Sequence record: MZ424864.1
Reading direction: 5' to 3' (one strand)
Origin: Escherichia phage vB_EcoP_ZX6
DNA length: 43,510 nucleotides
The position numbers were made by a program, and so were the translations under genes. The notes beneath the pieces were generated by a model. The model saw only the letters and a list, made by a program, of their open reading frames with translations. It was not told where the DNA came from and made no database searches. Position 1 is the stretch's first letter; each line of letters begins with the position of its first letter. Positions 39,981 to 42,242 of the stretch are shown piece by piece.

Positions 39981-40325
39981 TCAGCGTGCGTACCACGCAG
40001 CGAGCTGTCTTTGCTTATGATACGAGCGCACAGCCGCCCTAAATCTTGTATAAGCTCCACGATATCCGTACCGTAGTAGTGCTGTAACCACATCCAATTC
40101 GATCTGCTCTTGCAACTTCCGCGCGGCAGATTCTGTATACTCCCGGTACGTGGTGAGCACCACCGTTGAGTCCTGCTTACGAACTCGGAGGAGTCTACGC
40201 TCGACCGGTACGATTTGCTTGAGTTCATTAGGGACCTCTTTGAATGTTTCCCAAGTGCAGCCGCACTTGCCCTGCGTTTCCAGCAGGGCCCAGCACAGCA
40301 GCGCTGTTTCGTCTACTGTTAGCAT
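39981..40325 (-). CDS. hypothetical early protein (114 aa)
   Basis: Protein-like composition; contains CWALLETQGKCGCTWE; adjacent to the upstream small ORF. Confidence 0.45.
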   Translation of the reverse strand: MLTVDETALLCWALLETQGKCGCTWETFKEVPNELKQIVPVERRLLRVRKQDSTVVLTTYREYTESAARKLQEQIELDVVTALLRYGYRGAYTRFRAAVRSYHKQRQLAAWYAR

Positions 40326-40522
40326 ACGCTGTCCTTGAATACCGCGTTGCGGGCCACGAGTACGGACTGACTGTACAGCAATACAAACATGCCATCAAAT
40401 GCACAGTCTTTCAAGTACACACCAAGATATGAACTGTACCACTCCGCCGGGTTAGTTAGTGGTGCGTCAACCGCTATACGGTAGTACGTCCCGCGCAGGT
40501 TGTATACGTCATACTTAATCAT
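40319..40522 (-). CDS. hypothetical early protein (67 aa)
   Basis: Small ORF; start overlaps the stop of the hand-translated 57-aa ORF upstream (ATGA). Confidence 0.45.
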   Translation of the reverse strand: MIKYDVYNLRGTYYRIAVDAPLTNPAEWYSSYLGVYLKDCAFDGMFVLLYSQSVLVARNAVFKDSVC

Positions 40523-40525
40523 ATT

Positions 40526-40698
40526 ACACCCCGCACATTAAACCGGTAGCAATATCCGCGCAGGGTCATACCCAGGCGCTGCGCTTGTTTCTCATAGTGC
40601 TGGCGCAGTGCTGCCTTCGCGCTGTACTCCCGCGCCAACCCTTCGATTGTTGGTTGCTGCTTACGCATCAGCAGCGTCTCAGGATTCTTTCCGTGCAT
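40526..40698 (-). CDS. small hypothetical early ORF (57 aa), hand-translated
   Basis: Hand translation: MHGKNPETLLMRKQQPTIEGLAREYSAKAALRQHYEKQAQRLGMTLRGYCYRFNVRGVI. ATG preceded by GAGGTAGGT. Not in ORF track (<60 aa). Confidence 0.35.
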
Positions 40699-40705
40699 AC
40701 CTACC

Positions 40706-40969
40706 TCAAATATCGTTGTTGCTCTTACCGTCCACAGTGAGCGTCACGGCGGCGTCCGGGTACTGCTCCTGCACCGCCGCAAGGATACGCGCGCCCAGCT
40801 CTTTGCAGCCGCCGTCCGGGTCCTCAAATAGGTCGTACTCGGGGCGCGGCTGCGGTTCTTGCGTTGCCGGTTGCTGCAACTGCACTGTGCAATAGGGCAC
40901 CGGGTTGTTTACGTCATTGCCCAGCACCAGCATAGCGCTGGTCACAATGATGTTGAACACGTTAACCAT
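40706..40969 (-). CDS. hypothetical early protein (~87 aa)
   Basis: Track ORF 40706..40999; likely start is an internal Met (MVNVF..) overlapping the upstream stop. Mildly acidic C-terminal half. Confidence 0.45.
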   Translation of the reverse strand: MVNVFNIIVTSAMLVLGNDVNNPVPYCTVQLQQPATQEPQPRPEYDLFEDPDGGCKELGARILAAVQEQYPDAAVTLTVDGKSNNDI

Positions 40970-41195
40970 AAAGTTGTCTCCAGTCGTTGATAATGCCAAG
41001 ATTCACGGCGTCCAGCACAGTGCGGGCAGCCATTTCGGTGTAGGTATCCACAAATTCTAAAGGGGATTCCTGATTGGTGTCTTTGTCAGAGAATATAACC
41101 ACAGTGTAGTTGTATTCCTCGTAGACCCGATTGCACCACACGGGCCAGAGTTCATGGCCCGGATAAACCAATATAGCTTTCATATGAAACCTCAT
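40962..41195 (-). CDS. hypothetical early protein (73-77 aa)
   Basis: Second in-frame ATG (~41183) is preceded by GAGG, so the true start may be Met5. Acidic. Confidence 0.45.
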   Translation of the reverse strand: MRFHMKAILVYPGHELWPVWCNRVYEEYNYTVVIFSDKDTNQESPLEFVDTYTEMAARTVLDAVNLGIINDWRQLYG

Positions 41196-41207
41196 ACGCT
41201 AGTTGCA

Positions 41208-41239
41208 TTCACATAGCGCCCCGTAGGACGCTATAGGCT
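41208..41239 (-). promoter_or_regulatory. conserved intergenic hairpin element (copy A)
   Basis: Plus strand ttcacATAGCGCCCcgtaGGACGCTATaggct; about 30 nt match a second copy at 41991-42022 with 4 differences. Confidence 0.4.
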
Positions 41240-41372
41240 TGCTACTATACGTACTCACCCAATCCCTCGTACACCCATTTTTGAGCGATTGCCCGCATAG
41301 GGATATCGAAGGCGTCGGAATCGTTGGCCGCAGGGCACAAGGCCCACCACTTGATAACCGGTACTTTATAAA

Positions 41373-41948
41373 TTATGCCGCGGCCTTCAACGTCGCGTCC
41401 AGTACAGCGCGTACATCCACGCCCTGCGATACCAGCATAGACACAAGGTCAGCATCGCTTACACCAGTCTCTTTGGCCTTCTTGATAGCGTTTCTAACGC
41501 GCCCCAGCGCTTGCAGGCGCACTGAATCGGCATCCAGTGCGTCATTCTTCACCTGCTCCGCTTCGGCGGCGTACAGGGCCATACAGGAGCTATAAAAGCT
41601 GGCTACGATAACCTCGCGGCCCTGCTTGTCAGCTTGTTTGTAGTCCAGACGCATAGTGTCCAGTTCGATGCACAGCCTCTCGGCCGAGGCGTAGCACTTC
41701 TTCGCATTGAACTCGTACTTACCGGACTCTTTATTGAACTTGATAGGCAGCAGAGTGCGCAGCACCATATCGAAGTCGGCGGCATCACTGCGCTGCATAT
41801 CCGTAGCCCATGAGACGTTGCTGCTAATCAGGCCGTGAAACAGCGCGCTGATAGTGATATTACGCTTTGCTTCCACTACGTCGCCAAGCGCTTTGCGAAT
41901 GCTGCCCGCAGCGGTGAGCTTGAATACTTTACCAGTTGAATGAGTCAT
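41373..41948 (-). CDS. hypothetical early protein (191 aa)
   Basis: Well-formed ORF with mixed helical composition, preceded by a conserved hairpin element; no motif recognised. Confidence 0.55.
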   Translation of the reverse strand: MTHSTGKVFKLTAAGSIRKALGDVVEAKRNITISALFHGLISSNVSWATDMQRSDAADFDMVLRTLLPIKFNKESGKYEFNAKKCYASAERLCIELDTMRLDYKQADKQGREVIVASFYSSCMALYAAEAEQVKNDALDADSVRLQALGRVRNAIKKAKETGVSDADLVSMLVSQGVDVRAVLDATLKAAA

Positions 41949-41990
41949 AATGCACCTCGTTTATTGTTGGTTGTTTACTTATCGAATTAC

Positions 41991-42022
41991 TTCACATAGC
42001 ACCCCATAGGGTGCTATAGGCT
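41991..42022 (-). promoter_or_regulatory. conserved intergenic hairpin element (copy B)
   Basis: Plus strand ttcacATAGCACCCcataGGGTGCTATaggct; perfect 9-bp stem with 4-nt loop, same flanks as copy A. Confidence 0.4.
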
Positions 42023-42026
42023 GTAA

Positions 42027-42242
42027 TTAACGTCCGAATTGTCCGGCAGTGTACCAACCTTGCGGAGCCTTGCTGCTACCCTTTGTTTTGGTCTTACCGC
42101 GTACATTCGTACTGAATGTAGCGGATTGCTTTGTCCGCATATACCCGGCGCGGTTCAATGCGTCCCGGCGCTTTCTCAACTCGGGACCGGATAGCTTCTC
42201 CAGCCCCTCGAATTGTTGTTTCAACTTATCTTTGTATTTCAT
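42027..42242 (-). CDS. hypothetical early protein (71 aa), basic
   Basis: First ORF downstream of the promoter cluster; ATG preceded by AAGGTG; Lys/Arg-rich (possible nucleic-acid binder). Confidence 0.5.
   Translation of the reverse strand: MKYKDKLKQQFEGLEKLSGPELRKRRDALNRAGYMRTKQSATFSTNVRGKTKTKGSSKAPQGWYTAGQFGR

Follow-up and report, generated by a model that had tools for sequence, protein, structure and literature searches.

The genome of Escherichia phage vB_EcoP_ZX6 (record MZ424864.1), a stretch of 43,510 nucleotides (nt) that is referred to here as the window, carries at positions 39,981 to 42,242 a block of small minus-strand open reading frames (ORFs). Seven of these ORFs are intact, with products of 71, 191, 73 to 77, 87, 59, 67 and 114 amino acids (aa), and an eighth lacks its usual start codon. 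The block is probably an early operon that the host transcribes and that encodes small host-takeover or anti-defence proteins of a KP34-like Drulisvirus; a probability of about 0.6 can be attached to this reading. The host-takeover or anti-defence role is suggested by the position of the block, the small size of its products, their restriction to phages and the hypervariability of one of them, e67.

Early genes and operon layout

The genes of the block, beginning with the one closest to the early promoters, are as follows:

42027-42242, minus strand: e71, the first early gene, encoding a basic protein of 71 aa (isoelectric point, pI, 10.7); ribosome-binding site (RBS) AAGGTG; ratio of nonsynonymous to synonymous polymorphism (pN/pS) 0.11; PHROG 6352, of unknown function.
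41373-41948, minus strand: e191, a core early protein of 191 aa (pI 8.7), mostly helical, with the motifs SALFHG, DAADFD and LLPIK.
41245-41376, minus strand: e43, a relic whose 43-codon frame is intact and starts with ATA where relatives have ATG; PHROG 10968.
40962-41195 (77 aa) or 40962-41183 (73 aa, starting at M5), minus strand: e77/e73, acidic (pI 4.7); pN/pS 0.21.
40706-40969, minus strand: e87, an acidic protein of 87 aa (pI 4.05) with a hydrophobic N-terminus; pN/pS 0.15; PHROG 7036, of unknown function.
40519-40698, minus strand: e59, a basic protein of 59 aa (pI 10.2); Pfam DUF7267 (PF23929); pN/pS 0.22.
40319-40522, minus strand: e67, a hypervariable protein of 67 aa (pI 6.0); overlaps e59 (ATGA) and e114 (7 nt).
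39981-40325, minus strand: e114, a basic core early protein of 114 aa (pI 9.4) with the pair C21-G-C23; directly upstream of the large early protein.

Variation was compared among 40 related IMG/VR contigs and phage Ou2, and counts of loci are given out of 42, that is this genome and the 41 others. In all seven ORFs variation among the contigs and Ou2 is concentrated at third codon positions, and pN/pS is 0.11 to 0.29 in the ORF's own frame yet above 1 in the other two frames. Purifying selection confined to the own frame goes well beyond what chance ORFs would display, and the seven ORFs are therefore real genes. Each of the seven starts is preceded by a Shine-Dalgarno-like sequence, and the predicted start/stop overlaps are real for three pairs: e77/e87 (8 nt), e59/e67 (ATGA) and e67/e114 (7 nt). 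The original prediction, made from the sequence alone, had counted about eight small ORFs, with positions that stand, but the intact ones number seven. Its basic 71-aa protein is e71, its acidic ones are e87 and e77, and its 114-aa protein with a CxC pair is e114. A gene of 57 aa that it placed at about 40526-40698 exists, as the DUF7267 match and the pN/pS value of e59 attest, but is 59 aa long and extends to 40519.

For e77, the better RBS (GAGGT) precedes M5 at 41183 and would yield the 73-aa form, the upstream ATG at 41195 giving 77 aa; PHROG 7657 covers residues 5-77, which is the 73-aa form from end to end. In 28 of the 42 loci e43 is intact with an ATG that overlaps the e191 stop (ATGA), and its pN/pS is 0.25. 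In this genome a G-to-A change has converted ATG to ATA while leaving the e191 stop as TAA. Here e43 is possibly silent, unless coupling to the e191 stop permits a non-canonical start. Some relatives encode a 74-aa form of e43 with an N-terminal CxxC...CxxxxC ribbon, and the cysteine ribbon is found in this longer form only.

It is highly improbable that the small ORFs include frames open by chance or remnants of decaying genes. The loss of the e43 ATG, the strong divergence of e67 and the mutually contradictory GenBank annotations of the region would favour such a view, yet it is largely refuted by the selection analysis, in which the third-position bias and the low pN/pS values extend to e43 in relatives, and by the intactness of e67 in 42 of 42 loci.

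All long ORFs of the genome lie on the minus strand, the GC skew of the window is negative throughout except for two near-neutral 1-kb bins, and a megablast search with positions 39900-42400 returned 256 phage records, nearly all of Klebsiella Drulisvirus, with at least 80% query coverage in 135 of the 256. The window is therefore a whole Drulisvirus genome (KP34-like; Autographiviridae, Slopekvirinae) read in reverse, with the block at its left (early) end. Upstream of the block are two sigma-70 promoters:

42597-42625, minus strand: early sigma-70 promoter P1, TTGACA-17-TAGATT, with 10 of 12 matches in a promoter scan.
42514-42542, minus strand: early sigma-70 promoter P2, TTGACA-17-TAACTT, read straight from the sequence.

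The P1 sequence is identical to the predicted host promoter given for KP34-like phages (PMC4411677 Table 3), and P2 matches the TTGACAAGTTC.GATTCACTGAGTAACTT promoter of the same paper (PMC4411677). The order along the minus strand is the two promoters, the small genes, the large early protein, an M28-like peptidase, primase and helicase, and the same gene order is encountered in PP16, PP90, BF25/12, Buco, Micant and Vibrio AL-1. The block thus lies, as had been predicted, between a promoter cluster and a large early ORF. It also has the attributes of a host-transcribed class I early operon, being at the genome end that enters first, on a single strand, downstream of sigma-70 promoters and upstream of replication genes, and we infer that it would be transcribed by host RNA polymerase (RNAP) in the first minutes of infection. 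The number of predicted intrinsic terminators does not exceed that in shuffled sequences, and none is located at the hairpins described below. An octamer, GCTATCCC, is present in six copies on the minus strand within 42834-43415, a stretch of 580 nt that lies upstream of the early promoters, and nine times window-wide, where 1.6 copies are expected by chance.

Four of the genes, e71, e191, e59 and e114, are also found, with their order unchanged, in phages of Pectobacterium, Dickeya, Erwinia, Pantoea, Shigella and Enterobacter, and homologues of e191 and e114 are also present in Vibrio phages. Homologues of e71 come from phages of the first five of these genera. The protein has a conserved C-terminal motif, RGKxKxKGSS..P.GW....QFGR, which is all that an alternative e71 allele (PHROG 32970) has in common with e71. 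Those of e59 occur in Pectobacterium, Dickeya, Salmonella and Enterobacter phages. By comparison e77 is restricted to Drulisvirus (tblastn matches solely in records of Klebsiella, Escherichia and Shigella phages), and e87 is nearly so. Early-region gene content across related phages, to which the original prediction had pointed as a check, thus falls into four cross-genus core genes, the lineage-restricted e77 and e87, and the hypervariable e67.

The e67 gene is present in all 42 loci, where fixed ends (MIKYDVY... and ...LVARNVVFKDSVC) enclose a variable core. Its mean pairwise identity is 0.45, against 0.79 to 0.94 for the other six genes, and at 70% identity it splits into 15 allele classes, where the others have one to three (one each for e59 and e114). 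All of the alleles fall within PHROG 7916, and the allele class of this genome is shared with 5 of the 41 other loci. Alignments by blastn break at about 40500 and about 40360, around e67.

Mosaicism extends over the early region as a whole: blastn alignments break at the boundaries of genes and hairpins. Relatives carry optional cassettes within the early block, including a true DUF987 protein, HNH endonucleases and other ORFans. Loci for an HNH homing endonuclease or DUF987 in relatives are L034:3823-4311 and L001:2399-2638, and one HNH gene is inserted into e114. An HNH-AP2 endonuclease is present in this genome further downstream, at 33807-34286.

A sense-strand RNA hairpin and an overlapping reading frame

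A 32-nt motif, AGCCTATAGCRYCCTAYGGGGYGCTATGTGAA, occurs twice in the block, at 42022-41991 and 41239-41208. This motif, given as AGCCTATAGCGTCCTACGGGGCGCTATGTGAA and found at these two places, was proposed as a putative phage-specific promoter of KP34-like phages (Eriksson et al. 2015). Purified KP34 RNAP later gave no transcript from the motif region, and the true promoters were unrelated to it (Lu et al. 2019; PMC6834552). On this published result the motif is not a promoter for the phage RNAP. Rather, it makes up the core of a sense-strand RNA hairpin, two-stemmed and covarying, of which there are two copies:

41985-42028, minus strand: hairpin copy 1, minimum free energy -20.2 kcal/mol, z-score -3.8; overlaps the e71 stop, 37 nt upstream of the e191 start.
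41202-41245, minus strand: hairpin copy 2, minimum free energy -26 kcal/mol, z-score -3.9; overlaps the e43 stop, just upstream of the e77 RBS.

Motif and flanks together form an outer 6-bp stem, a 4x4 internal loop (AGCC/UGAA), an inner 10-bp stem and a tetraloop. Among 29 distinct copies, pairing is maintained in 95% of cells, compared with 28 to 46% when the partners are slid, and compensatory changes are seen at six of six outer-stem pairs. A covariance model scores copy 1 at 76 bits on the sense strand versus 18 on the other strand, and copy 2 at 75 bits; together with strand-specific G-U pairs, this difference places the structure on the messenger RNA (mRNA) strand. A search of positions 39800-43510 against Rfam gave no family match.

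In Shigella phage Buco, Dickeya phage BF25/12 and Pectobacterium phages PP16 and PP90 the hairpin precedes the e191 orthologue by 22 to 37 nt, and it holds this position upstream of e191 orthologues across at least five genera. Further copies lie at L048:1152-1211, L046:2418-2477, L042:1532-1589 and L045:1602-1660 of the comparison loci. The layout, with about two turns of mostly paired RNA, an internal loop and an intergenic location within a polycistronic mRNA, is that of a T7-type RNase III site, which suggests that the hairpin is either processed in the manner of RNase III sites or bound by a protein. Breakpoints between related phages recur at both hairpins (about 42030-42047 and about 41247-41261). 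The mosaicism also suggests that the hairpins serve as recombination anchors for the exchange of e71 alleles and of cassettes downstream of e191.

At its distal end the block runs into the large early gene, which has two possible starts:

38261-40228, minus strand: large early ORF, starting at 39931 (556 aa, RBS AGGAG) or at the ATG at 40228 (655 aa).

When read from 40228, the large ORF overlaps e114 by 248 nt (39981-40228) in the +1 frame of e114. The extension is free of stops in 39 of the 42 loci, the three phages with a stop including isolate Ou2. Synonymous shuffling of e114 predicts 2.4 to 4 stops in this frame, and the extension stayed open in just 0.2 to 3% of the trials. Leucine, valine and isoleucine codons that would create a stop were used in 0 of 111 cells in which an A in the context makes them harmful, versus 63% in harmless contexts. 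The amino-acid sequence of the extension drifts (own-frame pN/pS 1.16), and PP16 and the Vibrio phage are without it. Existing annotations differ, KP34p10 being long and others short, with 85% coverage. The extension may represent an overprinted N-terminal addition that gives rise to a 655-aa isoform of the large protein.

The large protein belongs to PHROG 6980, of unknown function, and has a cysteine-rich C-terminal part. It is followed by the M28-like peptidase (Pfam PF04389, E=5.6e-5; PHROG 4191). The genes for e114, the large protein and the peptidase are consecutive in PP16 and Vibrio AL-1 as well as here, where the latter two occupy 37206-39931 on the minus strand, which suggests that the large protein and the peptidase next to e114 form a conserved module.

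Candidate functions of the early proteins

The small ORFs had been described as having no recognisable function, and profile and structure searches bear this out. Every one of the seven matches a PHROG of unknown function from end to end. Against Pfam the seven ORFs gave no match besides DUF7267, to which e59 aligns with residues 3-59 over model positions 5-64 of 64 (89.8 bits, cutoff 27; E=1.5e-25), so that no Ocr or RNAP-inhibitor family was found. NCBIfam yielded nothing meaningful for the seven, PADLOC gave 0 matches at E<=1, and sequence and profile searches of these ORFs against the PDB were empty or returned noise. The AlphaFold models of e191 and e114 are confident (predicted local distance difference test, pLDDT, 88) and have no fold relative in the PDB; that of e114 combines a helix/helix/beta-hairpin core with a C-terminal helix that is basic and rich in aromatic residues. 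For e114 the analysis also considered the winged-helix DNA-binding proteins, a class with helix/helix/helix/beta-hairpin topology. The e191 family comprises just 37 clusters among 1.84 billion representatives, and neither e191 nor e59 has a relative across 185,579 bacterial and archaeal genomes. A homologue search seeded with PP16 gp09 recovered 3 proteins only. In published work AntiDefenseFinder runs report nothing in Drulisvirus, and the literature search found no study of the function or transcription of these genes, which are treated there as hypothetical, and no Drulisvirus transcriptome.

Several functional labels and resemblances were examined and set aside. The GenBank labels "DNA topoisomerase II large subunit" and "DNA helicase" for e77, "methyltransferase type 11" for e71 and "zinc finger" for the 43-aa e43 are unsupported by Pfam, NCBIfam and PHROGs. 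The label "DNA-damage-inducible protein" (DinI) for e87 corresponds to an hhalign probability of 0.4% over 6 columns with an approximate DinI query, and DinI was absent from the PDB profile search. Apparently spurious annotations of these small genes are found in GenBank records OQ819159, MN794001-3 and OL976437. Long proteins with ankyrin or helix-turn-helix repeats match the e191 profile over a short C-terminal stretch only, around the turn "G.sD.DLV.ML...GVDV", a motif-level resemblance rather than homology. The CxC pair of e114 is not conserved in the homologues from Pectobacterium phages, and it was not retained as a metal site.

A host-transcribed early operon would be expected to operate as follows. 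On entry of the DNA, host sigma-70 RNAP would begin transcription from the two tandem promoters, near 42600 and 42530, and read the seven small genes and the start-less eighth, continuing into the genes for the large early protein and the peptidase. Translation would proceed in the tightly packed groups e77-e87 and e59-e67-e114, with e191-e43 formerly coupled. The two hairpin copies bracket the e191/e43 unit, where they most likely serve for RNase III-type processing or for stabilisation, much like the sites in the early mRNA of T7. The proteins of the block are small, found in phages only and devoid of enzyme-like signatures, and they probably act by binding host or phage macromolecules. The widely shared e71, e191, e59 and e114 probably address conserved targets or have a part in the early programme of the phage itself; e77, e87 and e43 would be lineage-specific accessories, and e67, with its hypervariable core and fixed ends, is the leading candidate for an arms-race interface, either in anti-defence or in a strain-specific interaction with the host.

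Several points weigh against this reading. Since none of the ORFs looks like an established anti-defence or takeover protein, their functional class is argued by analogy with T7 and phiKMV, and no expression, interaction or phenotype data on these genes were found in the literature searched. The hairpin has no U-tract, and its cleavage by RNase III is a matter of inference. Its inner stem and internal loop are moreover conserved in sequence; RNase III alone needs no such conservation, and a sequence-specific binder of the hairpin is therefore possible. Conservation of four genes across genera fits a phage-intrinsic role equally well. On such an account e71, e191, e59 and e114 would serve the early programme as regulators or assembly factors and would not be anti-host effectors: e114 could be a putative nucleic-acid-binding regulator acting with the large protein and the M28-like peptidase, and e191 or one of the basic small proteins a putative hairpin binder that controls the fate of early mRNA. 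This agrees with the persistence of the four genes from Klebsiella phages to those of Pectobacterium, Dickeya, Erwinia, Pantoea and Vibrio, with the constant adjacency of e114 to the large protein and peptidase genes, with the predicted e114 fold and its basic C-terminal helix, and with an inner stem and loop that are conserved in sequence and always lie 22 to 37 nt upstream of the e191 orthologue. However, Vibrio and LIMElight phages have homologues of e191 and e114 and no clear hairpin, and overall the phage-intrinsic account is judged unlikely.

Less probable still is the presence of the classical functions themselves, a DNA-mimic anti-restriction protein of the Ocr type and an inhibitor of host RNAP resembling Gp2, each diverged past recognition. 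The original prediction had regarded the region as the classical location of such proteins, and with respect to position this holds, as the block is at the left end, behind sigma-70 promoters and ahead of the peptidase, primase and helicase genes; support for the specific functions is absent. In T7, gene 0.3 and other early genes take up the equivalent position, and the two acidic proteins e87 and e77 are lineage-specific. Against this, no ORF matches any such family in Pfam, PHROG, NCBIfam or the PDB, nor does AntiDefenseFinder report one in Drulisvirus. Even the most acidic ORF, e87, has 12 aspartate and glutamate residues among 87 (14%), compared with about 29% in Ocr and with the quarter or so, or more, that would be expected of a DNA mimic. 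In phiKMV-type genomes, furthermore, the known RNAP inhibitor adjoins the phage RNAP gene and is not at the left end. This rival is improbable. A bolder extension of the preferred reading, an early operon of takeover or anti-defence proteins, is tentative: at least one of the proteins without a known fold would be a new takeover or anti-defence effector, with e67 as a specificity-determining inhibitor of a polymorphic Klebsiella target, and the hairpin would be an unrecognised cis-acting RNA element in phages of the KP34, PhiM1 and Buco types, governing the processing of early mRNA or serving as the binding site of a core early protein.

In Klebsiella phage therapy Drulisvirus phages rank with the most used candidates, and their first-expressed genes are wholly uncharacterised. 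The basic picture of the block as a set of typical phage early ORFans is unchanged. The search is narrowed to four cross-genus core genes, two of which (e191 and e114) are confidently modelled without a known fold, and the e67 hotspot may help set strain specificity beyond capsule recognition. The "promoter" annotation of the 32-nt motif should give way to that of an RNA hairpin. The hairpin, the stop-free overlap and e67 are leads worth testing.

Comparison with known early regions

The block is already known in the sense that its hypothetical proteins are catalogued in more than 250 GenBank phage records. KP34 and other Drulisvirus phages have the same genes in the same order (KP34p02 and p05 to p09), with 80 to 100% protein identity, and the early hypothetical proteins of KP34 type are assigned to PHROGs 6352, 5277, 7657, 7036, 5136, 7916 and 6167. 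The block differs from that of some Drulisvirus relatives in the ATA start of e43 and in being without the DUF987, HNH and other cassettes. The one Pfam family represented, DUF7267 (PF23929), is matched by e59 end to end; this family has no known function, and membership therefore adds a name and nothing more.

The early mRNA of T7 carries the class I genes 0.3 to 1.3, transcribed from promoters A1 to A3 and punctuated by the RNase III sites R0.3 to R1.3. The early proteins of the Drulisvirus block are unrelated to those of T7 in sequence or fold, and, unlike in T7, the gene for the phage RNAP lies outside the block. The hairpin also differs from the T7 sites in that its core is conserved in sequence across genera and its cleavage by RNase III is putative. 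The likeness to the T7 class I operon is one of organization: both are located at the left end of the genome, with tandem host promoters and small genes ahead of the replication genes, and in both, intergenic two-stem hairpins with an internal loop are placed between coding units.

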